A stretch of 64,000 nucleotides of DNA from Amphiscolops sp. MND2022 (Eukaryota), in NCBI GenBank assembly GCA_964187785.1, contig OZ076409.1, positions 75,828,001 to 75,892,000 on the forward strand, read 5' to 3'. Positions within the stretch are counted from its first letter, which is position 1. Each line of letters opens with the position of its first letter. This document shows positions 1 through 64,000 of the stretch, in pieces. Below the pieces are notes generated by a model. The model searched no databases. It saw only the letters and a list, made by a program, of their open reading frames with translations, and was not told the DNA's origin. The translations under genes were made by a program, and so were the position numbers.

Positions 1-455
1 CAGCATTCCCGGGCGAAAAGTTGTGGGACTTAGAAAAAATTCAAAAATTTTCGAAATTTTTTTTCCGTTTTCCGGCCCCTCCCCCGAGGGGAAAAGACCC
101 CCCAACCAGTAATTTGAGTGAATTCATGTGGAAAGGCCATGTTTAGACGAAAAAATTGCCGTTTAGAACGTCTTTCTATCTCAACCTGACATTGACTTAT
201 GAAGCTTTAAAGGTGATGTTTGGACGTGTGAAGCATGTAAAAAAAGGAATTTTTTTGATTTTATTTCATCAGAAAGTCATTGAATCACACGCTGTGAAGC
301 CCAGAGCGTGGTTTCTAATAGTTTGGTATCGTTTAAACGCATTTTGGTGTCTTTTTACTCTGTTTAAAAAACTTTTCTCCTGAAAATTAATAAATTTTGA
401 TTACTTTTCTTACTTTCCATTAATTTTTTTTCTTATATTTTTACTTGAAACAGTT

Positions 456-499
456 GAGTACATTCCATCTCCCTTCCCGGGGGAGATGAGAATGTACTC
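456..499 (+). other. Central 44 nt hairpin of the short units (representative copy)
   Basis: GAGTACATT-C-CATCTCCC-loop-GGGAGATG-AG-AATGTACTC. It recurs ~270-320 nt before the junction in the standard units and was not seen in the long elements or the two divergent units. Confidence 0.8.
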
Positions 500-699
500 G
501 CAAAAAGCCGCGAACTACGGCCCATACCTTCTCGAGATACGCAGTATAAAGATAACATAATGGTCCAGACATTTTAATGGAGTTGTATCTTGGTAATATG
601 TCTGGATTTGCAGAAAAATCAGCACGTGCCATTTTATACCAAGTTGCTCGCAACGACAATTAATTTAAATCAACGCCCCCCACAAAAATCAACGCCCCC

Positions 700-772
700 C
701 GTCCGTGGGCATGCCGAGGCATGCCCTTCGACGACATGCACCAAAATATGCCCCGAGCGCGTTAGCAGCTAG
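700..772 (+). other. 3' terminal hairpin and CTAG of a short unit (representative; recurs before every junction except 24396, with one arm deleted before 5866)
   Basis: CGTC-CGT-GGGCATGCC-GA-GGCATGCCC-TTC-GACG at 700-733; CTAG at 769-772. Confidence 0.8.
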
Positions 773-3700
773 GTGCCGGTGTCTTTTTACACAATGGGGG
801 AAGTTGCGCGGTTGGGGAGGGTCCCTGACGCGCTTCCGTGAGATCAGGTTTTTCAACTAGTGAAATCGACAAAGAAAATTGAGATCTCGTAAACTAGCCA
901 TACGATTTGGCTGAAATTTGGCACACGTACCCCCCTCGGCACGGTGAAGATGATTTCCTACTGACGTTTTTCCCGCTAAACATTTTTTGTTGACCAAAAT
1001 AACGGTTTTTGGGGTAAAATTTTCAACTTTTTTTAAATTTCATCTTATATCTCGCCACGGGTGCACGCTAGCGCTTCCAAACCTTGCTGACGAAAGTTTG
1101 CAAACTGTCTCAGGAATGCTGTGTGAAAATTTCAGCTCAATCGGACTTAAACTCGAGGAGATATAGCGTTTTTCTGGAGCGGGGGGGTTTCATTTTTCTA
1201 ACGGTCCAGCTTATCTTTGCCATTTTTTCGAAAATGCACTCGCCTAAAGGCCTCCCCTGGCCGGTTTTATTCCCAGCAAAACCATTTGGCCCTAAATACG
1301 GAGTTTCAGCGTTCCAGCATTCTCGGGCGAAAAGTTGTGGGACATAGAAAATTTCAAAAATTTTCAAAAATTTTTTTTTTCGTTATTTGGGCCCCCAAAG
1401 TGGGGGAAAAGACCCCCCAACCAGTAAATCAAGTGAATGCATGTGGAAAGGCCATGTTTAGACGAGAAAAATGCCGTTTAGAACGTCTTTTTATCTTGAC
1501 TCAACGTTGACTTATGACGTTTTGAAGGTGATGTTTGGAGGTGTAAAGCAAGTGAATAGTAAACGTTATGAGTATTTATCTGATCTGAAAGCCATTGAGA
1601 TGCAATATGATTGCTCAAAACGTAATTCATTGCAGTTTGGCAATCAATCAACACCCTTTGTTGTCGTTTGACATACTTTTTTGTTGTTAAAATAAAAAAT
1701 TTTGTGTATTTATTCATTTTTTTCTCATCAAATAACTTGGAACAGTTGAGTACATTCCATCCCCCCCTTCCGGGGGAGATGAGAATGTACTCGCAAAAAG
1801 CACCGAACTACGGCCCTTACCTTCCCGAGCTACGCAGTATAAGGATTACATATTGGTTCCGATATTTTCATAGAGTTATAACTTGGTAATCTGTCTGGAT
1901 ATGCCGAAAAATCAGCACGTGCCTTTTAATACCAAGTTGCTCACAACGACAATTATTTTATATCAACGCCCCCATATTTATCAACGCCCCCCGTCCGTGG
2001 GCATGCCGAGGCATGCCCTTCGACGACCCGCACCAAAATATGCGTTAGCGCGGTAGCCGCTAGGTGCCGGGATTTCTATTCGATAAAGTATGTGGCGCGT
2101 GTGGGTAGGGTCCCTGGCGCGCTCTTGTGTTTGGGGGTTTCCTACTTCTAAATCACGTTCAGATTTCCGGGATCTCGTAAACTAGCCATACGATTTGGCT
2201 GAAATTTGGCACACGTACCCCCCTCGGCACGGTGAAGATGATTCCCTACTGACGTTTTGCCCGCTAAACATTTTTTGTTGACCAAAATAACGGTTTTTGG
2301 GGTAAAATTTTGAACTTTTTTTAAATTTCATCTTATTTCTGGACAGGGGTTTACGCTAGCGCTTCAAAACCTTGCTGATGAAACCTTGCAAACTGTCTCA
2401 GGAATGCTGTGTGAAATTTTCAGCTCAATCGGACTTAAACTCAGGGAGATATAGCGTTTTTCCGGAGCGGGGGGGTTTCATTTTTCTAACGGTCCAGCTT
2501 ATCTTTGCCATTTTTTCGAAAATGTACTCACCTAAAGGCCTCCCCTGGCCGGTTTTATTCCCAGCAAAACCATTTGGCCCTAAATACGGAGTTTCAGCGT
2601 TCCAGCATTCCCGGGCGAAAAGTTGTGGGACTTAGAATTTTTCAAAAATTTTCAAAAATTTTTTTTTCCGTTATTTGGGCCCCCAAAGTGGGGGAAAGCA
2701 CCCCCTAACCAGTAAAGCAAGTGAATGCATGTGGAAAGCCCTTGTTTAGACAAGAAAAATGGCGTTTAGAATGTCTTTTTATCTTAACTTGACATTGACT
2801 TTTGTCGTTTTGAAGGTGACCGTTAGATACAGAAAATTGATATTTTGAGTATTTATCCCATCTGAAAGCCATTGAGATACAACATGTTTTGCTCAAAACG
2901 TGTTTCATTGCAGTTCCGCTGTCCATTGACACCCTTTGATGTCTTTTGACGTAATTTTTTTTTCTATAATAACAATTTTTTTGTGTATTTATTCATTTTT
3001 TTCTCATCAAATAACTTGAAACAGTTGAGTACATTCCATCTCCCTTCACGGGGGAGATGAGAATGTACTCGCTAAAGGTCAGGAACTACGGTCTTTATCT
3101 TCCACAACACAAAAGAGATTGCAAATTTTTTTCAGTTTGTTGCAGAAAACTTCTTTTTGCACTCTGTGACTCGACAAAGTGAACGTTTCTTACTTACTTT
3201 GAATCTCACCATACCACAACTCATCTCTAACGTCAACGCCCCTCACACACATCAACGCCCCCCGTCCGTGGGCATGCCGAGGCATGCCCTTCGACGACGT
3301 ATAGCAAAATATATTCGAACGCGGTAGCAGCTAGGTGCCGGGATTTCTATTCGTTCGAGTATGTGGCGCGTGTGGGTAGGGCCCCTGGCGCGCTCTTGTG
3401 TTTCGGGTTTTCCTACTCCTAAACCGCGTTCAGATTTTCGGGATCTCGTAAACTAGCCATACGATTTGGCTGAAATTTGGCACACGTACCCCCCTCGGCA
3501 CGGTGAAGATGATTCCCTACTGACGTTTTGCCCGCTAAACATTTTTTGTTGACCAAAATAACGGTTTTTGGTGGAAATTTTTTGATTTTTTTTAAATTTC
3601 ATCTTATATCTCGCCACGGGTTTACGCTAGCGCTTCAAAACCTTGCTGACGAAAGTTTGCAAACTGTCTCAGGAATGCGGTGTGAATTTTTCAGCTCAAT

Positions 3701-6700
3701 CGGACATAAACTCGGGGAGATATCGCGTTTTTCCGGAGCGGGGGGGTTTCATTTTTCTAACGGTCCAGCTTATCTTTGCCATTTTTTCGAAAATGCACTC
3801 GCCTAAAGGCCTCCCCTGGCCGGTTTTACTCCAAAAAAAACCATTTGGCCCTAAATACGGAGTTTCAGCGTTCCAGCATTCCCGGGCGAAAAGTTGTGGG
3901 ACTTAGAAAATTTCAAAAATTTTCAAAAAAATTTTTTTCCGTTATTTGGGCCCCCAAAGTGGGGGAAAGGACCCCCCAACCAGTAAAGCAAGTGAATGCA
4001 TGTGGAAAGCCCTTAGTTAGATGAGAAAAATGGCGTTTAGAACGTCTTTTTATCTTGGCTCAACGTTGTCTTATGACGTTTTGAAGGTGACCGTTAGATA
4101 CGGAAAATTGATGTTTTGAGTCTTTATCCCATCTGAAAGCCACTGAGATACAACATGTTTTGCTCAAAACGTATTTCATTGCAGTTTCGCTGTCCATTAA
4201 CACCCTTTGGTGTCTTTTGACGTATTTTTCTTTTCTATAATAACATTTTTTCTGTGTATTTATTCATTTGTTTTTCATCAAATAACTTGAAACAGTTGAG
4301 TACATTCCATCTCCCTTCCCGGGGGAGATGAGAATGTACTCGCTAAAGGCCGCGAACTACGGTCTATATCTTCCCCAACACAAAAGAGATTGAAAATTGT
4401 TTCATTTTGTGGAAAAAATTCTTCTTTTTGTACACTGTGACTCGACAAAGTGAACGTTTCTTACCTATTTTGAAACTTCCCTCACCAAAAACCATCTCTA
4501 ACGTCAGCGCCCCCCTACTTGCATCAACGCCCACCGTCCGTGGGCATGCCGAGGCATGCCCTTCGACGACGTATACCAAGATATACCTGGAGCGCGGTAG
4601 CCGCTAGGTGGCCGGGAATTTTTTTTCCACTCAATTCTTTGCCAACTGGGGGAGGGGCCCCTGGTGGCTGGTGTTCGGATTTACATACTACTGTATTCGG
4701 GGCTACATTTTAACGATCTCGAGATCTAACCATACGATTCGCCTGAAACTTTGCATGCAGGCCCAAAATGAGATTGTAAGAACAATGATATAAGCGTTTT
4801 TCCTGAATTTTTGCAAAAAGTTGGTCAAAAACGCAAAAAATGGGCCAAAATTGACCTCTTTTTCAACTTTTTTATTTTTGAGAGCCCATATCTCGGAACG
4901 AGGTGGCCGTAGCGGGCCGCATAAAGACTCCGTTTTTGCTGGGCACTTGATGAGGAGTGCGTGGACAAATTTTCGTCCAAATCGAAGGAAAATTGACTGA
5001 GTATTGAGTGATTTTTTGACGACCTTTTTTGCGAACCCCATTGTATCTCTGCCATTTTCCGCCAAAATTTTCAAAAATGCTTCTACAGGAGGCAATCCCT
5101 GCCCAATTTTCTGCAAAACAAAACCATTTGGCCCTAAATACGAGGTTTCAGCGTTCTAGCATTCCCCGGTGAAAAGTTATGGGACTTAGAAATTTGTCAG
5201 TGAAACGCAAAATTTGTAAAGTCAACTTCCGGTGCCCAAAAGTCACAAAACTTTCACACAACTAGTATTGTAAGTGAATGCATGTGGAAAGTACTGAAAT
5301 AGACGAGAAAAATGAGCTATAGAACGACTCTCTACCTTAACTTGACGTTGACTTATGATGTTTTGAATGTGAGCATCCTATCTGATTTTAATGTCAAAAA
5401 TGAGATTTTGTAAGTCATGTCTCATCAAAAACTCAACGGAATACGTTCAATCATCCCCATAGCTGTTCAATTGCCGTGGCTTAGCGCAGCAACGCCATTT
5501 AATGTCTTTGGACCCATTCTGAAAAATTTTGACACCGTCTTATTCGTCCGATATCACGAAGCAGTTGAGTACATTCCATCTCCCCCTTGAGGGGAGATGA
5601 GAATGTACTCGCTAAAGAGCTGGTACTATGGCCCATATCTGTTTTTAATTGACGCTTCCTATGAGGTTTCACACGGATACCTCTATTTGGTAACACATTT
5701 TCTTTTGCACCATGTTTATATATGCTAAACCACTTCATTAGCTTCTACTATCTATACTCACACATGACTAACGTCAACGCCACATACTCGCATCAACGCC
5801 CACCGTCCGTAGGCATGCCTTTCGACGACGTATACCTAGTATACGCGTTAGCGCGGTAGCCGCTAGGTGCCGGGATTTCTATTCGATAAAGTAAGTTGCG
5901 CGGTTGGGTAGGGCCCCGTGAGCGCGCCCGTGTCTGTGTTTTTTGAACCTGAATTTGCGGGTGCCAAAATAGACGATCTCCTAAACTATCCATACGATTT
6001 GGCTCAAATTTGGCATACGGGTTCCTGAGACAGATATAAGAACTAATTCCTACTGGCGTTTTGCCCGGAAAATTTTTTTTGTTGCGCAAACGTGAAATTT
6101 TTGACAAAAAAATGCGATTTTTTTTGAAAAAATTTTTTTGAGAGGCCATATCTTTTTTCAGGGAGCCCGGAGCGGGACGCGTTAAACTGATTATAAACTC
6201 TACGGTTCACGGGCTGAACGGGGAACCTATTTTTGTTGGAATCCGACTTGTAGATTTTGAGATATATTATCAAATTTGGGTGTTTTTTTTCCAATTTTTC
6301 GAAAAACCTGGTTTATCTCTGCCGTTTTTTGCCCAGATTTTTTTCTAGACCCTCTCCTAAAGGCCTCCCCTGGCCGGATTACGTCCCAGCAGAACCATTT
6401 GGCCCTAAATACGAAGTTTCAGCGTTCTAGCATTCTCGGGCGAAAAGTTGTGGGACTTAGAAAATTTTTTTTAAAACGCAAAATGTGTAAAGTCAACTTC
6501 AGGCCTCCCAAAGTCAAGGAACTTCCACACAACTAGGATTGCAAGTGAATGCATGTGGAAAGTACTCGAATAGACGAGAAAAATGAGCTATAGAACAACT
6601 CTGTAGCTTAACCTGACGTTGACTTATGACAATTTTAGTGTGAGCTTGCTATGTGAGAAAAAATTTCAAAAATTGAAAATCGAAGCTAAGTCTCATCCAA

Positions 6701-7145
6701 AACTCATCGGAATACGTTCAATCCATTCCAAAGCGGTTTACTTCCAGCTATAGACTGCAGCAACACTATTCAAGACCATTGTACCCCTTTATATTAGTTT
6801 TGACATTGTATTATTCATCCGAGAGCACAAAGCAGTTGAGTACATTCCATCTCCCTTTCGGGGGAGATGAGAATGTACTCGCTAAAGAACAGGTACTACA
6901 GCCAATTTTTGTATTTATGCGAAGCCATTCTATGCTATTGCACATAACAACTATGCTATTGACTTAATTTTGCCTACACTTTGCTATGACATATGCTAAA
7001 CGTTTGGTCCTTACAACAACATACACATGACTAACGTCAACACCACATACTGTTACCAACGCCCACCGTCCGTGGGCATGCCGAGGCATGCCCTTCGACG
7101 ACGTATGCCAAATACCTTCCAGCGACGCTCGCGCTCCCCGGCTAG

Positions 7146-8534
7146 GTGGTCGGGGCGGTCCCCAGAACGCACAAGGAGGCGCGGGGAGGGTCCTGCGCCG
7201 ACGTAGAATAATTTCATATAATACTAGTATCCTACATGGGTGTTTTAGAAGCGATTTTGGAAACTAACCGTAGGATTTGGATAATTTTTTGCATGCGGCC
7301 TTAACTCGAAATTCTAAGAACTTTTTCCTACTGTCATTTTCCCCTCAAATTGTTTTGTGTTGACTTATGGCCGAAAAACCGGAAATAACGTCCTTTTTAG
7401 ACGTTATATCCGAAGTGTCGTCATAACTTTTTTCCAGGGCATGCTAGCGTTCTTGTTCACTTTTACACTTAGTTGCAGCATCTCGAAATACAACTGGTGG
7501 AAAATTTTGGTTGCATTCGGATCACCCCCCACCGAGATAGAAGGGTTTTCCCCTCCAGTTTTACCCCCCAAATTTGCGAAAAAGCTAATTTTGAGCTTGA
7601 AGCCGAGGATTTAGCGTACCCGCACCCTCCTGATGTTTTGTTGTAAGTATTGGGGTGAATCTGACCACATGTGTGGTTTTCACCCCCAACCCCCCCTGGG
7701 ACCGGAAATGACATTTTTTTGTATTTTTCGGCAGAAATTAGCTTTTTTCATTAGTAGGCAGTCGTTTTAGGGACTCTTAGCAGGATATCGAAATTGAAAT
7801 ACAACCTGATCACAACCCAGAGACAACATGTTGGCCATTTGAAGGTTCAATCATGACCGGAAGTGGGGTCAACCCCCCTTTTTGTGACCGCGTTTTGACC
7901 TCGTGCACCAAAATGCCAACAACGTTAGCCCTAATGACGCATTCAAATCTGTACAAAGAAAGAATGTTAGACAACCGAAGTCCCGGAAGATCTTTAGCAT
8001 ATACCGGAAGTTACCCCCAATGACCGGAAGTTACCCAATGTGACCGGAAATGGTCCAAAAATTAATGTAAAGTTGAATTTTTCACTATTTCAAGACCACT
8101 TCATTGAACATTTTCATTCCCAAAACTAGCGTACTGGCTTGTTTTTTCTGAAATTATGGAAATTGATGAGCTCTATCACCCCCGATAGCCTTCGAAGTTG
8201 ACCTTGCGTCAACTTTGGAGGCTATCGATACTGAAAATGAACATTAAAGTACATTATTGCTCTCGGTTTTTTCCCGTTGTTTTTCCTCAAACATTCTTGA
8301 GACATATACATGGCCGTTAATTGAAATCAATATTTAGCCCATGTTATAGCTGGAGCAGCGAAGCGTTACACAGGCTAGTGTGGTTTTGAAATTACATTAT
8401 TTAAATTAACAAATGACCGTCTTAGTCAACTCCACACATTCATACCAACGCCCACCGTCTGTGGGCATGCTGAGGCATGCCCTTCGACGACGTATGACGA
8501 ATCCACTCCAACGACGCCCGCAGTCCTCAGCTAG
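7146..8534 (+). mobile_element. Divergent non-autonomous unit (1389 bp) with a largely unrelated interior
   Basis: Head GTGGTCGGG, the head hairpin and the terminal hairpin plus CTAG are retained. The standard central blocks are missing, and CCGGAAR repeats are present. Confidence 0.65.
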
Positions 8535-11500
8535 GTGGCCGGAAATTTTTTTTTTCATCAAAATCTTTGCCATTGGGGGAGGGGCCCCGGATGGCCAGTA
8601 GTACGGGATAGCTTCCTACCAAATCCAGATGGAAAAAACGTGATTTCGGAAACTAGCCGTCAGAATTTGCTCAAATTTTGCATACGGCTTCCTATGACAA
8701 TCCTAAGAACTAATCCCTACTAGCATTTTGCCCAAAAAACGCAAAAAGTTGGTCAAAATCTTAGTTTTTTGGTCGAAAAATGGCGTTTTTTCGAAAAAAT
8801 TTTTTTTCAGAGACAATTACTCGTAACTGGTTCACCCAGCGCAAAAACGCCTAGCTGATTTATTGTTGAGGACTTCATGAGGAGTGCGTATACAAATTTT
8901 CGTCCAAATCGGATAAAAGTTGATTGAGAAATAACTGAAAATTTGAGGCATTTTTTTGGAAATTTTTGAAAACCTAGTCTATCTCTGCCGTTTTTTGCCC
9001 AGATTTTTTTCCAGGTCCTCTCCTAAAGGCCTCCCCTGGCCGGTTTACTTCCCAGAAAAACCATTTGGCCCTAAATACGGAGTTTCAGCGTTCTAGCATT
9101 CCCGGGCGAAAAGATGTGGGACTTAGAAAAAATTCAAAATTTTTCAAAAATTTTTTTTTCGTTTTCCGGCCCCCCAATGAAGGGGAACGACCCCCCAACG
9201 AGGATTTTTGGTGAATTCACGTGGAAAGGCCTTGTTTTGTGGAGCAAATTGCCGTTTAGAGCGACTTTTTATCTTAACTTGACGTTGACCTCTGTCGTTT
9301 TGAATTTGATATTAGTATGTGTTGAGCATGTGAAAAGTTGATGATTTCAGTTGCTCTCTCGTGTTCAAGCCATTGAGATACAAGCGGTAGTGATCAAAAT
9401 GTGATTTATCGCAATTTGGTGGTGCTTTTGGTGTATTTTGATTCTTTTAAATAAAAAGTTGTTCTTTATATATTTGGTGTATTGATTCAAATGAACAAGA
9501 AACAGTTGAGTACATTTCATCTCCCCCCTTGTGGGGGAGATGAGGATGTACCCTCTAAATGACACGCACAATGGCCCAATTTTATTTTTATGCGACGTTT
9601 TCTAGGCTTTTGCGCAAGCCCACTAAAATTTAGACTGGTTTCCTTTTCTTTTACTCCAAAATTTTCCGTACTAACCACCTTACCCACCACCAGCTCAACG
9701 TAACATCTGTAACGTCAACGCCACACACTCTCACTAACGCCCACCGTCCGTGGGCATGCCGAGGCATGCCCTTCGACGACGTATGCCAAATAGCGCCACA
9801 GGGCGCCCAATTTTGTCTAGGTGCCCGGATTTCTATTCATTAAAGTATGTTGCGCGTGTGGGTAGGGCCCCGTGGCGCGCTCTTGTGTCCCTGTTCTAAA
9901 ATCTGTAATTTCCGGCAGCATTCTGAGCGATTTTCTAAACTATCCATACGATTCGGCTGAAATTTGGCACACGTACCCCCCTCGGCACGGTGAAGATGAT
10001 TTCCTACTGACGTTTTTCCCGCAAAATTTTTTTTGTTGTCCAAATTAACGGTTTTTGGGGTAAAATTTTGAATTTTTTTTAAATTTTATCTTATATCTCG
10101 CCACGGGTTTACGCTAGCGCTTCAAAACCCTGCTAAAGAAAGCTTGCAAACTGTCTCAGGAATGCTGTGTGAAATTTTCAGCTCAATCGGACTCAAACTC
10201 GGGGAGATATAGCGTTTTTCCGGAGCGGGGGGGTTTCATTTTTCTAACGGTCCAGCTTATCTTTGCCATTTTTTCGAAAATGCACTCGCCTAAAGGCCTC
10301 CCCTGGCCGGTTTTATTCCCAGCAAAACCATTTGGCCCTAAATACGGAGTTTCAGCGTTCCAGCATTCCCGGGCGAAAAGTTGTGCGACTTAGAAAAGTT
10401 CAAAAATTTTCAAAAAATTTTTTTTCCGTTTTCCGCCCTCCCCCCCTAGGGGAAAAGACCCCCCAACCAGTAATTTGAGTGAATTCATGTGGAAAGGCCA
10501 TGTTTAGAGGAGAAAAATGCCGTTTAGAACGTCTTTTTATCTTGGCTCAACGTTGACTTATGACGTTTTGAAGGTGATGTTTGGAGGTGTAAAGCACGTG
10601 AATAGTAAACGTTATGAGTATTTATCTGATCTGAAAGCCATTGAGATGAATATGGTTTGCTCAAAACGTAATTCATGACAGTTTGGCAATCAATCAACAC
10701 CCTTTGTTGTCGTTTGACATACTTTTTTGTTGTTATAATAAAAAATTTTGTGTATTTATTCATTTTTTTCTCATCAAATAACTTGAAACAGTTGAGTACA
10801 TTCCATCCCCCCCTTCCGGGGGAGATGAGAATGTACTCGCAAAAAGCACCGAACTACGGCCCTTACCTTCCCGAGCTACGCAGTATAAGGATTTTATATT
10901 GGTTCCGACATTTTCATAGAGTTAAATCTTGGTAATCTGTCTGGATATGCAGAAAAACCAGCACGTGCTTTTTTATACCAAGTTGCTTACAACGACAATT
11001 ATTTTATATTAACGCCCCCATATTTATCAACGCCCCCCGTCCGTGGGCATGCCGAGGCATGCCCTTCGACGACGTATACCCAGATATGTTCGAGCGCGTT
11101 AGCCTAGGTGCCCGGATTTCTATTCATTAAAGTATGTTGCGCGTGTGGGTAGGGCCCCGTGGCGCGCTCTTGTGTCCCTGTTCTCATAACTGCAATTTCC
11201 GGCAGCATTCTGAGCGATTTTCTAAACTATCCATACGATTCGGCTGAAATTTGGCATGTGAGTTCCTATGACAGTTCTAAGAAACATTTCCTACTGGCGT
11301 TTTGCCCGGAAAATTTTTTTTGTTGACTTATAACGGTTTTTTTGGCCAAAAAATGCAATTTTTTCAAAAATTTTTTTTTTCGGAGCCCATATCTTTTTTC
11401 AGGGTGCCCGGAGCGGGACGCGTTAAACTGATTATAAACTCTACGGTTCATGGGCTTTACGGAGAACCTAGGCTCGTTTCAATCGGACAAATAGTCTTGG

Positions 11501-12435
11501 AGATATAACGGCATTTTTTGGGAATTTTTTGGAAATTTTTCTAACGGTCCAGCTTATCTTTGCCATTTTTTCAAAAATGTACTCGCCTAAAGGCCTCCCC
11601 TGGCCGGTTTTAATCCCAGCAAAACCATTTGGCCCTAAATACGGAGTTTCAGCGTTCCAGCATTCCCGGGCGAAAAGTTGTGGGACTTAGAAAAATTTCA
11701 AAATTTTTCAAAAAAATTTTTTCCGTTTTCCGCCCTCCCCCCCCCCGAGGGGAAAAGACCCCCCAACCAGTAATTTGAGTGAATTCATGTGGAAAGGCCA
11801 TGTTTAGAGGAGAAAAATGCCGTTTAGATCGTCTTTTTATTTTAACCTGTCGTTGACTTATGTTGTTTTGAAGGTGACCGTTAGATGTGTGAAGCTTGTG
11901 AAAACGTTATTAATTGTGTCTATATTCCTTTCAAAAGTTATTGCGATACACGATGTACAACTCAGAACGTATTTATTCTAATTTCGCAGTTACAATACAA
12001 TTATATAGGTGAATTGGGTATCACTAGCGTAAGAGACGGTTTTACGGAGCGATTATGATCAAAGGCGATACGGTTCGTTGAAAAATATTATTGAAGAAAA
12101 CATTGGTTTTTTCGTAGGTTTTTGTCTAGAATTTTTAAATGTTTTTTCCGTTGGTTATAGGTGTAGGTTATAGGATAGGTTGTTTCAAAGGTCCTTCTTT
12201 GCTTTTCCTGTTCATAGCATAGATTGTTTTTGATGGCAGAAGTCGACGAAGACCAAGCATACGAGTTTTTCTTTTATTCTCGATTTTATTACATCTGCGC
12301 ATTGGTCGTACGGTCGATATTGAGCGTAAAATACGCTCTTCGAAACAATATGTGGCCATCGTCGATCAATTTCTACGTGTAAGTATCGAATTTGCCCATA
12401 TGGTAAAATATAAGAATAGAGGGAATGGGTTTTTC

Positions 12436-12540
12436 AAAATCCGGCTCATCAGAAGTTAGCTTGCGGCGTTATGCTGAAGGCCCTTCTGATGATGCTATGT
12501 CCCCCCTTTTTTAGTGGGTAACCTATGCCCAAATTTTTTT
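12436..12540 (+). ncRNA. Candidate structured RNA or regulatory core, copy A
   Basis: About 105 nt that read as identical in three places (12436, 12978, 55705) while the flanks differ. It contains the stem TCATCAGAAG/CTTCTGATGA with an inner TTAGC/GCTGA stem, then C6-T6 and GGGTAACCTATGCCC. Function is unknown. Confidence 0.4.
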
Positions 12541-12977
12541 CAAGCAAATTTTTCCAGCATTTTTGTTTTTTGAGAGTCTTAACCATAATAAGCAACTGAT
12601 ACATGTTTGTGAAATAATATTATTTTTTGAATTTGTTTTTTGTTGAAAGTTGTTTGTAGAATCTGAATTGTCTTTCCTTGTAAAAGTTATGGTATTATAT
12701 GAGTTTTTAACTGATGTTCTTGAGAATGAATTCGAGCAATAAAAGACTTGAAACCTCTTGTACTGTATGTTTGATGTATGTTTATTTTGTATTGAGAGTC
12801 AAGTAACAAAAGTCAAGTAGCGGAGACTATTACATCTGCGCATTGGTCGTACGGTCATTATTAATCATAAAATACGCTCATTGAGAAAATGCGTGATCAT
12901 CGTCGTTCAATTTCTACGTGTATTTATAATATCTACCTATATGTTACATTATAATAATTGGAGGTGATGGGTTTTAC

Positions 12978-13082
12978 AAAATCCGGCTCATCAGAAGTTA
13001 GCTTGCGGCGTTATGCTGAAGGCCCTTCTGATGATGCTATGTCCCCCCTTTTTTAGTGGGTAACCTATGCCCAAATTTTTTT
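12978..13082 (+). ncRNA. Candidate structured RNA or regulatory core, copy B
   Basis: Same sequence as 12436-12540. Confidence 0.4.
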
Positions 13083-13778: not shown

Positions 13779-13802
13779 TCTTTGTTGTTTTCCAGGGTTA
13801 TG
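13779..13802 (+). promoter_or_regulatory. Candidate splice acceptor 4 nt upstream of the Rep-helicase ATG
   Basis: TCTTTGTTGTTTTCCAG|GGTT-ATG here and TTTCATATTTTCAG|GGAT-ATG at 56411-56431, with identical spacing in both elements. Confidence 0.6.
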
Positions 13803-20819: not shown

Positions 20820-20888
20820 GTGAATCTTTCCAACTTTATTAAAACACACTATGAACTAATGACTGTATACTATATGTTAAAGACTTAG

Positions 20889-20927
20889 GAGTTTGCCGGG
20901 ATTACGCAGTGATCCCAAGGCAAACTC
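20889..20927 (+). other. Conserved hairpin ~70 nt downstream of the Rep-helicase stop (element 1)
   Basis: GAGTTTGCC-GGGAT-TAC-GCA-GTG-ATCCC-AA-GGCAAACTC. A counterpart lies at 63482-63512. Confidence 0.7.
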
Positions 20928-22435: not shown

Positions 22436-22570
22436 GTTAGAAATATAAAAAATTTCCACTTTTACACTAACTGCCATGTTTGGACAAAAAATTTTTACAA
22501 TGAAATAATGCTGGCTAATACTTTATAAGCATAAATATATAACTTTCAAATTCAACTAAATTGTTTGCAG

Positions 22571-55809: not shown

Positions 55810-56428
55810 CCAGCAATTTTTCCCAGCATTTTTGTTTTTTGTGAGTCTTAACCAAAATAATTTCTGATACATATTTTTGATTAAATATTACTTCTTAAAG
55901 TAGTTTTTCATTGAATGGTTTTAATACAATCAGAATTGTTTTTCCTTGTAAAGTTTTTTTGTAATATGAGTTTGTAACTGATGTACATGAGAATGAATTC
56001 CACCAATAAAAGACTCGAAACCTCTTGTACTGTATGTTTGATGTATGTTTATTTTATACTGAGAGTCAAGTAGGACATTACGTCTCTCGATCAAATCATA
56101 GATTTTCTTCGCTCTTTTATTTCGTTAATTGCTATTTTCCAAGTGGAACCGCTTCACACATTTGATTTTGCAAAGAAACATTGAACAAAGGTATTGTTTT
56201 AGCATATTTAGAATCAAAATTGAATTTTTCACGTTTGAAAGATTATAAGATTTACAAGTTCTCTGATTTTATCCATCGTCTAAAACTTGATTGACTCGAT
56301 TTTGGTAATTGTTCCAGTGGCGCTTCAACTATTAATTCGATTTCATTAGCCAATTCGGTTGATCCGTATCAAATTTTAGTCCCAATGAGATACTGAAATG
56401 TTCAATTTCGTTTCATATTTTCAGGGAT

Positions 56429-59400
56429 ATGCCTCCAAGGAGAAATCGGAGTGTTAGAAACAAGTGCTCCCGGTGCCGTGTGTTTATCCCTCAGTCTTCG
56501 ACTTTGTGTGCCAGTTGTGCATCTTCCTCCGCCGAGGTAACTCATGACAACGAAGACAGCAGCAGTGTTTCTATACCCAACGAAGACAACCCTCGGAACA
56601 TAGTTTACCCTCCTCGTTGTACATTATGTGGATTACATGAACAGTCACAAGGCCAACTTTGTTGTTTTTGCTGTCCTGTTACTTTACCCGTTTGTACAGA
56701 TGCAGAATGTCAAAAGTGCCGAAGAATTACCTGTTCATCACTGAATTCAATTTCTATGGCAGATGTAAAGCAGACCGCGTTTGGTTGCCGATTACCGGGA
56801 GAAACATCTGATTTTGCAAGACTGTGCAACGAGTGTACTCATTACGCAACACATGGCTTCCGATCGCCATGGAGGAATATTTGGCCATGCGTCGTTTTAG
56901 ATTTCCTCAGTGGTGAATATAATGGAATTGCTGATGGAAAACCATTCCATAAAGTGTTGCCTACTTCTATTTTGGAACAATATCAACATCTGTTGCAGTT
57001 TAACACTGATGAAAAAGAGACTGTTTTTGCTGACCTGACACACAAACTGCTGGAATTCAAAAGTTTAAAACAAAACCTCAACATTGAAGGAGTGCAGAAA
57101 GCCCATAACAAGTACAGTTTTCCAGAAGTTCGCTGTCCTTTTGGTTGTACTGAGTTCGTTGGCGACACGGGATTAATACCCTTGCAATACTTTCTTCTGA
57201 CGTTAGACAAAAACTTTGCTTTTAACGGAATGAAGTGGAAAAGGCGATTACGTTGTGTTCGACCAGATTGGTTGACCCCATACAATCACAATGATGCCTT
57301 CAACGTAAGACCACACATTGTTGTCGACGAGAAACAAGGACTGTGTCTTGCAACCTGTAAATTCCACAACGGGGGATCGCACCAGTTTTTCGTCCATCCA
57401 CCTACAAATCCCACTGGCAGATTACCCTCGAAAAATGCAGATCGTCTTGGTCCAGCTACAGTTAGTTATAACTGCTACAAACCAAGCAAGCCCAATTTTT
57501 CCACTCACACCTTTTCAATGGGTGTGGCTAAGGGTAATTTCTCCGGAATTAGTTCGACCACAATTGCCTGTAAGCGAAGGTGGGATATCGCATTTGGTGA
57601 AGATGACGTCGTAAGAGAGTCTCTTTGTTCAAACAAACGACAGGATATAAAACCGCTGTTACAAAAACTTGTGCACAAAGGAGAGTTATCACAGAATCTC
57701 TTTGATAGCATTACATCAATTGAAGGTTTGCCTGACGATCAAACAATTCTGGAATGTTTGAAGACTGCTACATCCGTCCCTTTGGAGTTAGCTCTTGCAT
57801 TAAAGAAAATTCAAGAAGAAGGATTAAATGTAAACTATTTTCCGGTATTCTCCCATCCTTTCACAAAATACGGATGTGATCCACCTGACACAGTTGTAAA
57901 CCAGTCAATGCCGAAATATTTATGGATTTATGCTGTAATGTTTGCTTTGAGTTGCAACTTCCATTTGTCTCTTTTGAAATTCATTTCAACAGATAGTGCC
58001 TTCAAAAATGTGTTCCATTTTATGCTGATTAATGATGGTAGACTGGCTGATAAAAAGAAACGAGAACTTGCAGAGTTCCTTCAACGTTATTCACAAGATC
58101 CTAGTTATGACATGGTTGACAGTTTGGAACAATTGCTAACAAACATATCTTTCGTCAAACACTTCAATGTAACTGACAGAGAAAGTGTTGAATCAAATTT
58201 GAAATCTCTGACCGATGACAAAATTGTAACTTTCATTACCAATGCAAGGAGAAGAGACGATGGTTACTTGCCGGATAGAGTGGTAACTACGAATGGGTCA
58301 ACATCATACGAACTACGATCAATTGCTGTCACTGAGGGCGGTAACGTAAAAACACTCGTTAGACATGGTAATGAATATAATTGTTGGTGGATATACTCTA
58401 CAGCTCATGAGACTCCATCAAAAATGGGTCTTGAAGATCTGGTGGAGATGAACAAATTTCATTCTAGTTGGTTGTCCTGCCATTACGAGATCATTGGTTC
58501 AGTTGACATGCAGAGAGAAAAATACCAGTACTTGGAATATTTAGGAGGCCAAGGACGATTCATTTGTGACGATCATCATGTCCCTCTTACAGTAGCCAGA
58601 AAAAATACTCCGACTCTTTGTTCGTTCAGTACCAGCTGTCAGCGAAAACCCGCTTGGAATTGCCCGTCGGAGAACTGCTTGTCGTCAGTCTGCCGTACTC
58701 ATTTCGCACAACACCAGCTTAGCAATGAACGTTTCTTTGTCAAATGCCCCACTTCAAATTGTGACGTTGTTCCTCCACATTCTGCTGAATGTTGTGATGA
58801 TGATGTAGTTGTTTCTGAACCCGAATCAGACTACGATGAATTTTCTTTTACAAATTTCACAACCGACACTGGTCATGTTGAAAATATGACAAATTGTTGT
58901 GCTACTGATTCTGGAGACATGCCGTCAGTCGTTGACAGTGTTGACACATCAATTCCTGCCCATATTTTGCTAAACACTGATTGTCATGTACTAGAAAGGA
59001 AGAACTACAGAATTGACCGTTCCAAAACAAGTTCTCGATTTTTACAAAACATTGTCGCAAGATCATCTGGTAACTCCATCCCTCTCATTTACCCTGACGC
59101 AGCACTCTTCCCTACACATTATTATCATGAACAGACGGACAATACTATTACTGGCGCTGTTCCGGCTCCTCTCTTTTGTGATAAACAGAGCAAACACTTT
59201 CTCTTTGCAAGCATTGAGGATCATAAGCGATCAGCTGTTCTGAACCCAAATCTTTTGCAATCAACCGACGTTAGAAGTATTCAGACATCTTTCGACACCG
59301 TGCTGAATAAACGTCTCACTTTTTCCGATACACGTTTGGTTCTCAATCGAGGATTCCAAGAAGTGACTGTGAAGACTTCCAAATCAATAACTCCAACTAA

Positions 59401-62400
59401 TCCAAAACTTCAATTTGATCATGCTGATTCTAGAGTACGCGTAAATGAATTGGCCGCATTGTTGTCTAAAGAACCTGCTACATTTTTTCTGACACTCACT
59501 TGTAACCAGAAATATCACTTTGGGGTAGCACCAATTTTTGAAGCTATTGAAAATCGATTCAACAGAAATAATAAACGAGAGTACGAGAGAGCAGTTCAAG
59601 CTGAGATGGTGCTACTAACAAGAGCTTGGTATAGATCAGCTGAAGCTTTAATGGAATGGATCGAAAAATCTCCCGACCAACCACTTGGAACTGTCACCAA
59701 AATTTGGTATCGCTATGAGTTCCAGTCTACCAAAGGGAACTTACCGCACATTCATTGCGTCATATGGACAAAAGAAAGCAAAGCTGAATTACAACACAAG
59801 GTTTCATGCTCTGGATCATCAGCTTTATTCGAATTGAAAAAAATAGCAGCTGAAACAAATGTAATTAATAGTGATCAAGTTTTCGATTTGTGGACTCAAC
59901 TGATGACAATCCAAACTCACTCCTGCGAAAAGGCAAACTATCGCTGTCACAAAATTGTCAAAGACGACGGGTCAACAATATGCAGAGTTCCCCGTTACCC
60001 GCATTCAAACCGATATTCCTGGAGAAAAGTCCCATCAAGCCATTCGGAAGAAGCATTGCAAGTTCTTCATTACCTTGACTTGGCCACACCCTCGAAGTCT
60101 CATGACGATACCTTCGAAGTTTCAGAGAGTCTTCAAGGAGGCAAATTCGAATACCCAGTTTCAAGTGACGAGCACCTTTCCCCTTTTAACCCACTTGTTT
60201 TCATCATTACGATGTCTTCGCAAAACCTTCAATTGTGTGACGAATACTTATCTGCAAGGTATATTGCAAAATATGCAGCAGGGATCGAAGAACGAGCTGA
60301 TGCACGTGTTGATCCGGTTTCCTTCAATGAAATTAGAATTCACACTAAAGGAATTAATAATTCGAAAATTTCCAGTTGCCGTATCAAAGAAAAAAGTACA
60401 GATAGAAAAACAATTGTTCAGATAATTCCTCTCGTTGAAACTGTTTGGTGGTTATTGAGTTTCAAATATGTTCACAGTTCTGTTTCCTTCGTTCATTTAT
60501 CGACTCTTGAAAAGTCAGAACGAACGTCTTTCATCACACCCAGAAAAAATACAAACCCAACCCAGCCGTTACCTTTACATGTTACAAAAAGTTTCACTTT
60601 ACCACTGTCGCGCCAATTCACCCAATCACAGTTGTTGGTTTTAAAAGATTCTATGACAAGTGAGCATTCTAACTGCAAAATGACAGTTTTTAGCGGTAGG
60701 CCACCAGCGCTTTTGTGTGTTGATAACCCTCAACTGTATTTCACTTGGTTCAACAGACTTAATATTCGGCATCCCCAGGATACATTGAATCATGATGTTA
60801 ACAATTCAAAATGGATAGACCTTTTCGGACGTGCTGTACACTTGAGACGTTGCTATCTTGATGACTTTTCCACTTATGTCAACAATCTCAGAAGAGAGGG
60901 ACATATCAACTTGTACCGATTCGATGAAGATACATCGATTTTGTTTCTACAAAACGACTGTTTGGGATTGAAAACAATAGACGATTTTCCAGTTCAAGTT
61001 GTGACATCAAACATTGTGCCAAATAATCGTCGAAAATTTTTGGTGCACTTTGTTCTATCTAACGGGAAGTTTGAGACAGAACCAGATCTATTCAATCATC
61101 CTAGCATGATGGAGGTTTTCATCAACTGCAAGTTACTGCCATCAAAAAGTTCTTATACACAACAAGATGCCTGTGATTTAGTGAAATTTTACGTTTTGTC
61201 GGAACTCAAATACCTTCCTGGAGCAAGCAGATCGTTCGATCGTCATTTGTTATGTTGTTACGACTTGATGACCAATCTTGTTCTTCATAACCAGATTCAT
61301 TCCGAAGCTTTGCCCTCAACTCTTCATTCAGAAATAACCGAAAACGCTGAAATTGATTACATCCTCCACAGTAACGAAAAACGAGAGCGAAGTGTTCAAG
61401 GTTGCCTCTTAAATCCAGCTTTGATGCCATTGCAACCACACAAAGATTCTTTCGTCGCAGCCACCCGCAGTAACCCGTTTGTGTACAGTTTTCCGTTTCC
61501 TCGAGCTCCCGGACAGTCGGACGAATCAAACACTTTTCAACAACGTGTGTTCAACGGGTGCATTCAGAAATTGACTAACTTTATTGAAACAAAAGACGGT
61601 TTCGTAAAACATCAATTGTTTTTGGGGCGTCCGGGAAGCGGCAAAACACTCATCTGCACAATGATATATCTGGAAGCTGTGGCGAAAGGTCTCAATTGTG
61701 CAGTAACTTGTCTAAGTGGAGAGCGAGCCCAACAACTCGGTGGCGAACATGTCCACAAACTATTCAAGTTCAGAGTAAACAAAATACAGAATCCCGAAAT
61801 AATGGCTTCCCAGAGTTTGAAAAGTCTTCTCAAGGATGTCACAAGGTTCACTGAGCTGGAACGCCTTGACGTACTTTTTATTGATGAAGTGGGCCAGCTG
61901 AATTCTGAATTGATGATAGCTATGGAAATTGTTCTACAATCTGTACGAGAAAACAAACTGCCAATGGGAGGAATCTTCACAATCCTAACAGGAGATCCGA
62001 AGCAATTGCGCCCTCCACAAGGATCATTGACATGGTTGTCACCGAAGATGCTGACAAATTTTGATTTCCACTACTTTAAACACTATGTTCGAGCAAAGCC
62101 TGGATTGTTGCGACAGATACTGACTAAATTAGATGAACTTGATATCAGCCCAATCGAAGCATCAAATATTGCAAAGGAAATTGTAGCCAATTGTAATATC
62201 CATTCAACTTGGGACAATGTTGGTGACAACTTTGACATGCGTGTTTTCAGCACACGAGCCGCTGAAAAACAGGCTGTTACACATCATTTTGAAAAAATTC
62301 TGGCTGACCAAAGTTGTGTAAATGTTGTGTTAACTGCTAATGATGAAGTGAGTTCTACTGGTGCATCAATTTGGCGTCCGGCAGGTGACATTGAACAAAA

Positions 62401-63412
62401 AATCATCGATTCCACATCCATCACTCCCCGACAACTGCTCTTGTATAAGAAAGCGCTTCTCAGATTTACAGCCAACCTCCCCAACATTCAGGCTAGGCAA
62501 GGCCAATTGTGCCTAATTTTGGAAATACCAACCGAAACAGCATCTTCTCTGGACGTTTGGATTGCACCACCAGGTTGCCGGACCGTCACAAATTTCGACG
62601 AAAATAACCTCATTACATCTGGTTGGCGCAAAGTCTCTATTTCAAAAGTGTTTACACCTATAATGACTAACAACAACAAATTCCTAAGGAGATACTCTTT
62701 CCCTCTCAAGAACTATGTGGCATCCACTATTCACAAATGCATTGGTGACACGTTCCCAAAGATTGTTACCAAAGTTTCACTTACGGACAAACATTACAAA
62801 ATTTGGGAAAAAGAGCAACTTCTTGTGTTGTTGAGTAGAGTCAGTAAGCTCGACGACATAACGTTCGTAGGTGAAGAACACGAAATAGAATTAACTTTAA
62901 CTGCTGCCATTCAGCAAAAGTCCTGCTGGGGAACTTTCATCAATAACCTTCTGGAAAAATTGGCCTGTACTCCCTCTGACCTGACGCCGCCAACACTCAA
63001 CCTCCTTTCTTCAAATATTGTACCTTGGAACATTGTCTTACCCGAAGACAATGTAGGCTTTGTGTATCTTCTGGTAAGCACGAAGATTCCGAATGTTTAT
63101 TTCATTGGAGAGGCTCTGGAAATTCGGCGAGAATTGAAAGTTATCAACTCTGGAAATGGCGCATCCGAAACACGCCCAATCGAACGAAGGCCATGGGCAA
63201 TCTTAGCATTTGCAACAGGTTTCAACACCGAAGATTCTTCCAGCAACAATACGCAAAGAAAATCGCTTGTATCGAAGATGAGAACGCAATTTACTTCCCT
63301 TGGATTAAACTTCACCACCGTGGAATTGTTTGAAACGTTCAAAGAATCAACGAGAACATATGCTGACGAACGTGATCTAAATTTGAGAGTTATCCAGTGT
63401 GGCAGTGTTTAG
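56429..63412 (+). CDS. Helitron-like Rep-helicase, diverged paralog (2327 aa) with the same domain order
   Basis: Uninterrupted ORF, colinear with the 13800-20819 protein. Motifs FFLTLTCN, EFQSTKGNLPHIH, YIAKY, GRPGSGKT, FIDEVGQL, GDPKQLRPP, STIHKCIGDT and GFVYLLVS..YFIGE..RPW are all present. Confidence 0.9.
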   Translation: MPPRRNRSVRNKCSRCRVFIPQSSTLCASCASSSAEVTHDNEDSSSVSIPNEDNPRNIVYPPRCTLCGLHEQSQGQLCCFCCPVTLPVCTDAECQKCRRITCSSLNSISMADVKQTAFGCRLPGETSDFARLCNECTHYATHGFRSPWRNIWPCVVLDFLSGEYNGIADGKPFHKVLPTSILEQYQHLLQFNTDEKETVFADLTHKLLEFKSLKQNLNIEGVQKAHNKYSFPEVRCPFGCTEFVGDTGLIPLQYFLLTLDKNFAFNGMKWKRRLRCVRPDWLTPYNHNDAFNVRPHIVVDEKQGLCLATCKFHNGGSHQFFVHPPTNPTGRLPSKNADRLGPATVSYNCYKPSKPNFSTHTFSMGVAKGNFSGISSTTIACKRRWDIAFGEDDVVRESLCSNKRQDIKPLLQKLVHKGELSQNLFDSITSIEGLPDDQTILECLKTATSVPLELALALKKIQEEGLNVNYFPVFSHPFTKYGCDPPDTVVNQSMPKYLWIYAVMFALSCNFHLSLLKFISTDSAFKNVFHFMLINDGRLADKKKRELAEFLQRYSQDPSYDMVDSLEQLLTNISFVKHFNVTDRESVESNLKSLTDDKIVTFITNARRRDDGYLPDRVVTTNGSTSYELRSIAVTEGGNVKTLVRHGNEYNCWWIYSTAHETPSKMGLEDLVEMNKFHSSWLSCHYEIIGSVDMQREKYQYLEYLGGQGRFICDDHHVPLTVARKNTPTLCSFSTSCQRKPAWNCPSENCLSSVCRTHFAQHQLSNERFFVKCPTSNCDVVPPHSAECCDDDVVVSEPESDYDEFSFTNFTTDTGHVENMTNCCATDSGDMPSVVDSVDTSIPAHILLNTDCHVLERKNYRIDRSKTSSRFLQNIVARSSGNSIPLIYPDAALFPTHYYHEQTDNTITGAVPAPLFCDKQSKHFLFASIEDHKRSAVLNPNLLQSTDVRSIQTSFDTVLNKRLTFSDTRLVLNRGFQEVTVKTSKSITPTNPKLQFDHADSRVRVNELAALLSKEPATFFLTLTCNQKYHFGVAPIFEAIENRFNRNNKREYERAVQAEMVLLTRAWYRSAEALMEWIEKSPDQPLGTVTKIWYRYEFQSTKGNLPHIHCVIWTKESKAELQHKVSCSGSSALFELKKIAAETNVINSDQVFDLWTQLMTIQTHSCEKANYRCHKIVKDDGSTICRVPRYPHSNRYSWRKVPSSHSEEALQVLHYLDLATPSKSHDDTFEVSESLQGGKFEYPVSSDEHLSPFNPLVFIITMSSQNLQLCDEYLSARYIAKYAAGIEERADARVDPVSFNEIRIHTKGINNSKISSCRIKEKSTDRKTIVQIIPLVETVWWLLSFKYVHSSVSFVHLSTLEKSERTSFITPRKNTNPTQPLPLHVTKSFTLPLSRQFTQSQLLVLKDSMTSEHSNCKMTVFSGRPPALLCVDNPQLYFTWFNRLNIRHPQDTLNHDVNNSKWIDLFGRAVHLRRCYLDDFSTYVNNLRREGHINLYRFDEDTSILFLQNDCLGLKTIDDFPVQVVTSNIVPNNRRKFLVHFVLSNGKFETEPDLFNHPSMMEVFINCKLLPSKSSYTQQDACDLVKFYVLSELKYLPGASRSFDRHLLCCYDLMTNLVLHNQIHSEALPSTLHSEITENAEIDYILHSNEKRERSVQGCLLNPALMPLQPHKDSFVAATRSNPFVYSFPFPRAPGQSDESNTFQQRVFNGCIQKLTNFIETKDGFVKHQLFLGRPGSGKTLICTMIYLEAVAKGLNCAVTCLSGERAQQLGGEHVHKLFKFRVNKIQNPEIMASQSLKSLLKDVTRFTELERLDVLFIDEVGQLNSELMIAMEIVLQSVRENKLPMGGIFTILTGDPKQLRPPQGSLTWLSPKMLTNFDFHYFKHYVRAKPGLLRQILTKLDELDISPIEASNIAKEIVANCNIHSTWDNVGDNFDMRVFSTRAAEKQAVTHHFEKILADQSCVNVVLTANDEVSSTGASIWRPAGDIEQKIIDSTSITPRQLLLYKKALLRFTANLPNIQARQGQLCLILEIPTETASSLDVWIAPPGCRTVTNFDENNLITSGWRKVSISKVFTPIMTNNNKFLRRYSFPLKNYVASTIHKCIGDTFPKIVTKVSLTDKHYKIWEKEQLLVLLSRVSKLDDITFVGEEHEIELTLTAAIQQKSCWGTFINNLLEKLACTPSDLTPPTLNLLSSNIVPWNIVLPEDNVGFVYLLVSTKIPNVYFIGEALEIRRELKVINSGNGASETRPIERRPWAILAFATGFNTEDSSSNNTQRKSLVSKMRTQFTSLGLNFTTVELFETFKESTRTYADERDLNLRVIQCGSV

Positions 63413-63481
63413 TTCATTTGGGTTTACAAATATTACACTGTAGAAGTCTCTGAGAATGGACGATAGATGAAGCATGTGAGG

Positions 63482-63512
63482 TTGCCCCGGCCACGCAGTG
63501 AGCCGAGGGCAA
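63482..63512 (+). other. Conserved hairpin ~70 nt downstream of the Rep-helicase stop (element 2)
   Basis: TTGCCC-CGGC-CAC-GCA-GTG-A-GCCG-A-GGGCAA. It has the same ACGCAGTG apex with different but still paired stems. Confidence 0.7.
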
Positions 63513-63972
63513 GCTTTATTCAAACTATAGATGAACATCCTTTTTTGTTGAAAAGTTCTTTGATTATACTTTGCCTTTGCTCATTTTTTCAACGTTCCTT
63601 TGTAAATATATACTGATAAAATTGTCACCCGTTGATAATATTACCAGTTGACACTGAAGTTGACACCAGTCAAGAAAAAAAATAATTATCTGACTGGAAC
63701 AAAAAAAGACAAAAAAAACAAGATGGCAAGATTGTTGAAACAGTTCAATTCTTCAACTTCGATAATCTTTTCCTTAACATATTTTTACCATCACGTGGAG
63801 GGAAATAGAAAAACATTTCTACAGTTAATTAGTTCGAAAGAGAAAAATTAGACAGTATTTAGACGCAGTAGTGATGTTGTACATCGAAAGAAATGAAAAT
63901 GTGTCGAGAAACATAACTTTATTGTGTTTTTAGATAGCTTTGTCTTCAATCGAGACTGAAACAAGATTCAAA

Positions 63973-64000
63973 ATGCCCATCATTAATAAAGATTTGTCGG
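63973..64000 (+). CDS. ORF2 homolog of element 2, 5' fragment cut by the window end
   Basis: ATGCCCATCATTAATAAAGATTTGTCG encodes MPIINKDLS, versus MPIINKNLS at 21514. It occupies the same position downstream of the Rep-helicase gene. Confidence 0.75.

Follow-up and report, generated by a model that had tools for sequence, protein, structure and literature searches.

The 64,000-nucleotide stretch of DNA analysed here (the window) covers positions 75,828,001-75,892,000 of contig OZ076409.1 (C1) of Amphiscolops sp. MND2022, in a genome of 1.07 Gb, and is made up of Helitron-like rolling-circle elements that follow one another head to tail, in one orientation, at a common CTRG|GTG junction. The explanation that we favour, and regard as probable, is that these elements belong to a clade of transposons with a fused Rep-helicase protein (RepHel) that prefer, as their target, the point where two resident copies meet, circles being inserted there. 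The underlying observation is confirmed, and sequence statistics from two arrays support it well.

The Units Are Joined Directly at One Junction

The pattern CTRG-GTG matched the window 35 times on the + strand and twice on the - strand. Because the + match at 20154 lies inside an open reading frame (ORF) and both - matches are without terminal motifs, 34 true junctions are left, every one on the + strand, which is the count given in a preliminary description of this DNA. The first half of them cut after positions 772, 2063, 3334, 4607, 5866, 7145, 8534, 9820, 11107, 23337, 24396, 25683, 26952, 28240, 29528, 30845, and 32111, and the second half after 33383, 34652, 35923, 37195, 38464, 39752, 41034, 42313, 43595, 44862, 46142, 47412, 48728, 50001, 51287, 52577, and 53844. 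No spacer DNA and no duplication was present at these junctions, in agreement with the claim that neither host DNA nor a target-site duplication separates the members. The window holds one partial short unit at its start, 32 complete short units (31 of 1259-1389 bp and one of 1059 bp, with pairwise identities of 53-99%) and two long elements; the 32 short units and two diverged Rep-helicase elements reported before were thus recovered, the two RepHel frames being 60% identical. The same tail can be joined to different heads: as reported, CAGTCATTATCGCTAG ends at 33383, 34652, and 38464, with the three heads given for these positions matching exactly.

The window is part of one unbroken head-to-tail array of at least 287 kb, which runs on C1 from at least 75,718,816 to 76,005,437 and has host TT after its last tail. 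Units of 1.04, 1.3, 2.0, 2.2, 4.9, 12, and 14.7 kb occur in it, and the bodies of the 1.04, 2.0, 4.9, and 14.7 kb families, although unrelated, are joined through the common junction. The preliminary description had the array and its Rep-helicase elements right and missed the extent beyond the window and the families with unrelated bodies; in the coding elements it missed a GIY-YIG region at the C-terminus and a second gene that is conserved.

The Junction Is a Sharp Breakpoint and Units Move Singly

In this first array, 95 units with lengths of 1240-1400 bp were aligned, leaving out 21 that were longer or shorter, and their distance matrices were compared. Adjacent 50-nt windows within units correlated at 0.56-0.93, and between a head and its own tail, at a distance of 1.25 kb, rho was 0.76; the correlation of a tail with the head abutting it was 0.22. 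On the opposite strand, C1 38.03-38.17 Mb holds a second array of 84 units, 58 of which were used in the same way; these gave 0.39-0.91 within units, 0.76 for head and own tail, and 0.25 for tail and abutting head. At the resolution of single bases, association over 170 junctions tracked the upstream body up to position -5 and the downstream body from position +4, the 7 core bases in between being invariant partly through the way the junctions were chosen. The family signal therefore flips at the 7-base core and breakpoints are not spread through the unit; such a spread is what the preliminary description had named as speaking against its proposal. The minimum of linkage lies at zero distance across the junction and not in a conserved block 60-100 nt upstream; unequal crossing-over is not the explanation, since it would make linkage decay with distance.

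Neighbours of the same family were found 12 times, against 9.8 in shuffled order (p=0.25). Twins of at least 97% identity had matching next neighbours in 5/58 cases and matching previous neighbours in 9/57. In the second array, 37 Mb away, 36 of the 84 units have a full-length twin of at least 98% identity in the first array, and their neighbours on the two sides match in 4/36 and 3/36. Growth as a concatemer is contradicted by the fact that neighbours are no more alike than in shuffled order, so the earlier rejection of a single rolling-circle concatemer holds. By these comparisons, the arrays consist of single, entire units that stand in shuffled order, with the families mixed.

The short target sequence is also frequent inside the units. 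In 240 units we counted 578 same-strand and 969 opposite-strand CTNG^DT sites (1547 together), of which 140 same-strand ones are CTRG^DT. One of the 240 units was internally cut and none was inverted, which argues that the tetranucleotide alone is not sufficient to build arrays.

Nearly All Counted Copies Lie in Arrays

One tail motif has 4325 copies in the genome, and in this one tail class CTRG-GTG follows within the next 20-50 nt in 4216 of them. Reversed control patterns gave 0 matches in place of 4325 and of 4216, so the association of tail and junction is not due to chance, and the copies are not mostly dispersed at unrelated sites, an outcome that the preliminary description had said would count against it. 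Seen from the other side, one head class has CTRG upstream 863 times and a base other than C at position -4 only 3 times, one of these being a real head. When 23 heads were checked, 21 stood after a tail of some family, one inside another head, and one apparently after host DNA. Small arrays were also found at isolated loci.

The junction is shared by distant relatives. Divergent RepHel elements with 33-51% identity in the Rep region adjoin the same junction in five of the six regions retrieved. A metagenome contig, L130, the sole locus obtained by a search outside this assembly, carries the end of a RepHel gene at most 46% identical to the retrieved ones and with an intact GIY-YIG motif, followed by the second conserved gene (ORF2); it ends in tail-CTAG|GTG-head, which places the junction in an independent assembly.

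Element Ends and the Founder Target

The 3' end is CTAG or CTGG at all 34 window junctions, with CTTG or CTCG in a few families elsewhere. The 5' end is GTG in all heads, and a search pattern for the head minus its first G gave 0 matches. Tails of the main class have a palindrome hairpin 45-70 nt before the 3' end; tails of the CCACTGG type are without this palindrome. Fold z-scores for seven end segments ranged from -1.8 to +1.6. Base pairing between tail and head was considered as a means of target choice and set aside: own ends scored 6.12 and shuffled ends 5.80 over 85 nt, a difference confounded by relatedness and CGCG motifs and absent in the first 30 nt.

Tails followed by host DNA were found at 30 loci (32 matches), with AT following in 21, TT in 8, and TA in 1; a further 22 continue with GT and a base other than G. 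Twenty of the host-followed tails were traced upstream, yielding nine solitary copies and four array members. The solitary copies are preceded by CTAG (four), CTCG (two), CTTG, CCAG, and GTCC, and the array starts and one further solitary copy by CTAG or CTTG. In five of the nine the host tetranucleotide upstream is unlike the tail, and the flanks are not repeated; judged from these flanks there is no target-site duplication. From the sequences of these sites, the element is GTG...CTRG and its founder site CTNG^DT, entered without duplication. Since the founder tetranucleotide (CTNG) resembles the last four bases of the element itself, every insertion, on the same evidence, recreates the target at both ends.

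Two solitary copies (L029 and L043) share their insertion point, CTAG^AT, in a tRNA-like repeat that, judged by eye, is probably a short interspersed element. In four small arrays (L020, L033, L041, and L077) the last member shares its head family with five solitary copies, which hints that the last member is the founder in a sample that is small and was selected by tail pattern.

Weighing the Junction-Targeting Explanation

Several points weigh against a transposon that prefers its own junctions. The evidence comes from one assembly and one time point. The 97.5% of tails that precede a junction describes one tail class, in which any following GTG was scored as a head and could in rare cases be host DNA. 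Seven of the 20 traced host-followed tails had no head motif upstream, and the sixth divergent RepHel region had no junction within 20 kb. The order of units is not fully random, as seen from the cross-junction correlation of 0.22-0.25 and a clustering of related head types; some dimers may have been copied together (5/58), and the units are internally mosaic, so ordinary recombination occurs too. A logistic test of head versus tail recognition favoured the tail in one array (A) and the head in the other (B). Finally, insertions away from junctions exist at L081, L155, and L032 and in a 314-bp unit. At L081 two insertions lie 13 bases apart within another unit, at CTTG^GT and after CTGG; those at L155 and L032 lie 33 and about 65 bases into the head of another element and suggest near misses beside a junction.

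Four other explanations were considered. Arrays could have been seeded by transposition and then shuffled in place, through relaxase-like, Rep-catalysed site-specific recombination or conversion between genomic junctions, with no free circles. The same sharp breakpoint at the core and exchange between arrays are expected from such a process, and the TrwC relaxase does recombine two nick sites. It should, however, shift or delete blocks of several units, whereas twins nearly always have unrelated neighbours on both sides, and the solitary whole copies show that single units are mobilised; we consider it unlikely. It is also improbable that the enzyme reads CTNG^DT only and that elements accumulate in arrays through homing to a chromatin domain together with loss or selection of dispersed copies. 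The loose tetranucleotide at founder sites, the crowding of intact autonomous elements in a few megabase regions, and the fact that no site matches the consensus better than CTAG^GT at the junction would all agree with it. The 1547 internal sites, against about 240 junctions, with a single internal cut and no inversion, disfavour it strongly; about 6 million CTNG^DT sites are expected genome-wide (assuming a GC content of 0.37), and small arrays that arise at isolated loci also count against it.

An ordinary Helitron-derived satellite, in which rolling-circle concatemers are scrambled by unequal crossing-over and gene conversion, seems very improbable to us. Mosaic units do occur, and tandem Helitron arrays are described in plants and Hydractinia in the accessible parts of PMC12628747 and PMC11934779. 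This origin is largely refuted by the unlike neighbours and by linkage that is lowest at the junction rather than in the conserved upstream block, where homologous exchange would be easiest, and it does not account for unrelated bodies of 1-15 kb joined to the base. We give hardly any credence to an assembly artefact that joined repeat units in arbitrary order: certain units are 99.8-100% identical and might invite it, but most neighbours are 55-90% identical and hence not confusable, mis-joins would fall within shared sequence and not at unit ends, and the junction is present on the independent contig L130.

For insertion at resident junctions we propose the following mechanism, its first steps by analogy with Helraiser and IS91. 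RepHel would nick after CTRG at the head, one strand would be peeled off by the helicase and the protein with oligonucleotide-binding (OB) folds, and a stop after the tail CTRG would give a single-unit circle with a tail-head junction. For integration, a terminus already in place would attract the enzyme, and this would most likely be the conserved head motif; we lean toward recognition of the head because its motif is the one feature common to all families. A nick at the adjacent CTRG^GT would then drop the new unit between two old ones with orientation kept. Short units would be carried in trans by autonomous partners that share the first 0.7-0.9 kb and the tail, and the arrays would serve as a self-made safe harbour. 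The preliminary description had proposed that circles integrate at existing tail-head junctions; the junction-precise pattern of single units supports that proposal, and the circles and the enzymatic specificity are the part that we infer.

A broader reading, to which we give somewhat less than even chances, is that the elements form a third, widespread eukaryotic clade of rolling-circle transposons (RepHel-GIY-YIG plus OB protein) that is cooperative and integron-like, the circle of any member docking into the junction of any other. Within this reading, and held just as tentatively, dozens of families with Rep regions only one third identical would keep a common junction code and build megabase domains of intact, still mobile cassettes.

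Autonomous Elements and Their Proteins

The two long elements are both on the + strand. Element 1 (11108..23337; 12,230 bp) is 95-96% identical over its first ~880 bp to the short units at 29529 and 47413, and its last ~85 bp carry the shared tail. Element 2 (12,052 bp) runs from 53845 to about 65896, ~1.9 kb beyond the window end, and its first 800 bp are 94.6% identical to the short unit at 52578. We ruled out that an 11-kb element had inserted into a short unit: what the long elements have in common with short units is limited to the first 0.7-0.9 kb and the last 85-180 bp, and no remainder is present. The 5' non-coding part of element 1 contains a ~527-bp tandem duplication (12293-13348), for which element 2 has a single matching copy.

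Both RepHel frames are uninterrupted and have 2349 codons (frame 1, stop to stop, 13770..20819; frame 2, 56363..63412; both +). Frame 1 has a Cys-rich N-terminus, an HUH motif at ~17160-17168, two catalytic-type Tyr at ~17673 and ~17685, and a Pif1 Walker A motif at ~19038. Helitron_like_N and PIF1 scored above the Pfam cut-offs in both frames, and the HUH histidines, both Tyr and the Walker A motif are invariant across 32 aligned homologues. A profile of the RepHel family matched Pif1 helicases, Helraiser (in the helicase only and more weakly than cellular Pif1) and, at the C-terminus, SLX1 nucleases. This SLX1-like GIY-YIG region lies at ~20460-20670 (+) in frame 1 with key residues replaced. 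The Pfam GIY-YIG domain is present in many RepHel relatives, and the second GIY-YIG motif, intact in many of them, has its Arg and His replaced in both window copies. Nuclease activity of the region in the two window copies is therefore doubtful, judging by these residues, and on the same ground the GIY-YIG region was disfavoured as the targeting nuclease, although many relatives are intact. Five RepHel relatives (P0027, P0032, P0034, P0035, and P0055) have additional protease domains (PF02902, PF02338).

ORF2 lies downstream of RepHel in every long element retrieved in full, as on contig L130. In element 1 it encodes 308 amino acids with two OB folds and a Cys cluster (21514..22440, +); in element 2 it starts at 63934 and its 338-codon frame continues beyond the window (63934..64000, +). 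A Pfam scan of ORF2 gave no match. The fold predicted with a 15-row alignment had a predicted local distance difference test (pLDDT) score of 89.6; from the single sequence only, pLDDT was 34. Foldseek ranked LEF-3, RPA, and CST best for the model (E about 2e-5) with low template modelling scores of 0.2-0.3, and VIA-align returned Teb1, MCM10, and RPA70 (Z 9.0-8.0, root-mean-square deviation 3-4, about 110 residues), with Atlas consistent. On the strength of the model, ORF2 is a putative single-stranded DNA-binding protein like RPA70, Teb1, and LEF-3.

The Rep region, used as a query against the genome, gave at least 126 matches (122/480 candidates scored) at 33-100% identity, many in open frames of more than 2200 amino acids, with clusters at C1 70-76.5 Mb, C2 102-104 Mb, and C3 2.4-3.9 Mb. 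About 6 Mb of C1 (70.5-76.5 Mb) holds many arrays as well as intact RepHel genes, with one strand carrying nearly all of them, and may be centromeric or heterochromatic. At the protein level the clade comprises 199 clusters (50% identity, E up to 1e-30); no relatives were found among viral contigs.

Layout of the Short Units

All features of the window described here are on the + strand. The window opens with the 3' part of a short non-autonomous unit (1..772), followed by eight short non-coding units of 1259-1389 bp (773..11107) that belong to at least six subfamilies with 58-92% mutual identity. The end of element 1 gives an example of a tail (23266..23337), in which a hairpin from the palindrome GGCATGCC-gagg/GGCATGCC is followed by the TTCGACGAC motif, a variable stretch of 25-50 nt, and the terminal CTAG. 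Next comes the 1059-bp unit (23338..24396), which is of another family, with 53-56% identity to the others and a tail ending in CCTCCACTGG, and has the same head motif and junction. Twenty-three short non-coding units of 1266-1317 bp, from mixed subfamilies in shuffled order, fill 24397..53844 up to element 2. The window had no match to Rfam families or tRNAs, and a host RNA gene array was ruled out on this basis.

At unit position ~1050-1100 of most short units (e.g., 773-2063), a GC hairpin is flanked by the arms of a long, conserved inverted repeat, GAGTACATT...AATGTACTC. The repeat is not in the first 1.3 kb of the autonomous elements and is a possible cis signal of non-autonomous units. 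Outside the window, C1 75,747,292-75,809,592 is a block of 4.9-kb units without a frame of at least 200 amino acids, interspersed with 1.04-kb units having the same ends. A 14.7-kb element of autonomous type (C1 75,977,099-75,991,814) has a split RepHel frame and a head 99% identical to the commonest short subfamily.

Comparison with Known Systems

The published systems are compared here from the accessible parts of the sources cited. Like members of the RepHel superfamily, the elements have an HUH Rep with two Tyr fused to Pif1 and make no target-site duplication. With canonical Helitrons (HLE1; Helraiser) they have in common a Y2 HUH Rep fused to Pif1, a 3' CTRR, a subterminal palindrome in some families, the lack of a target duplication, non-autonomous partners, and an optional RPA-like gene (PMC4778049, PMC11417382). 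Helraiser circles have precise CTAG-to-5' junctions, and Helraiser needs its 5' end and shows no local hopping or donor clustering (PMC4778049). Of the features that define HLE1 (PMC11417382, PMC3627910), the 3' CTRR is present, whereas the 5' end is GTG and not TC and the target CTNG^DT and not A^T. The HLE1 hairpin lies 10-12 nt from the 3' end; here the palindrome is 45-70 nt from the end and lacking in some families. The elements also differ in the ~2350-aa protein with its SLX1-like C-terminus and in the arrays, which hold about 97% of the counted tail-class copies.

HLE2 elements (Helitron2/Helentron) likewise encode RepHel, with a GIY-YIG domain in one Sphagnum family (PMC11417382). Unlike them, the present elements lack asymmetric inverted repeats of 8-15 bp, a T at the 5' end, a T^T target, and an apurinic/apyrimidinic endonuclease. 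End pairing of the HLE2 type was not detected in 130 end pairs, a tail scoring 4.58 against its own first 30 nt and 4.62 against other heads (p=0.68). The unclassified clusters of HELIANO might include the present clade, which is set apart from HLE1 and HLE2 by its termini. Replitrons have a Y1 Rep without a helicase and short terminal direct repeats (PMC10288648), against Y2 and a helicase here.

IS91 inserts in a fixed orientation beside CTTG, GTTC, GTCC, or CTCG, which are like its own terminal site, and its ends join in circles (PMC13181058). The likeness lies in the HUH Y2 enzyme, the lack of duplication, and oriented insertion at a tetranucleotide resembling the element's own end. IS91, however, is bacterial, without a helicase, and about 2 kb long; here a 2349-aa RepHel is encoded in a 1.07-Gb genome. 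The available text of PMC13181058 describes no stacking of mixed families at their own junction. By analogy, the present system would combine Helitron-like workings with the target logic of IS91. The preliminary description had drawn its parallel instead with TrwC and the Rep of adeno-associated virus; IS91 fits better, the end tetranucleotide being equal to the target.

Two other systems build comparable arrays. The Drosophila telomeric elements HeT-A, TART, and TAHRE form same-orientation arrays of mixed autonomous and non-autonomous members; they are retrotransposons and occupy chromosome ends. In integron cassette arrays, circles are integrated singly at a recreated site by a bacterial tyrosine recombinase. 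The chemistry of both systems is different, and no cargo genes were found in the present short units.

Tandem arrays derived from Helitrons are known, and an insertion-site preference has been proposed for transposable element dimers (Xiong 2016; McGurk and Barbash 2018, via the review PMC12628747, in its accessible part). The Helitron arrays described there and in Hydractinia (PMC11934779) are truncated or decayed, of a single family, and often have many 5' ends with one 3' end; the units described here are complete, belong to many families, and are moved singly. Isolated tandem cases are described in Fusarium (PMC5148889). The accessible parts of PMC8788227 and of bioRxiv 10.64898/2026.09.17.752431 contain no matching system. 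In the literature outside subscription papers, Repbase Reports, and supplements, we found no description of mixed-family, junction-targeted Helitron arrays or of such targeting by eukaryotic DNA transposons.

Meaning of the Arrays

In published accounts, Helitrons disperse into AT or TT sites and owe their tandem arrays to concatemers. The statistics presented here point to the insertion of single units at a recreated site; this would make these elements a natural case for how HUH transposases pick their targets and for how transposons become large tandem domains, and would tie eukaryotic Helitron-like elements to the target logic of IS91. With 199 clusters the protein clade is broad, so that such behaviour may be common but concealed in assemblies that have collapsed. 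If the enzyme proved junction-specific in vitro, it would offer a self-renewing landing pad for the ordered stacking of large DNA. If the cooperative clade is real, it would represent a site-specific integrase of natural origin for eukaryotes that is driven by a helicase, leaves no duplication, and can be re-used for DNA of 1-15 kb.

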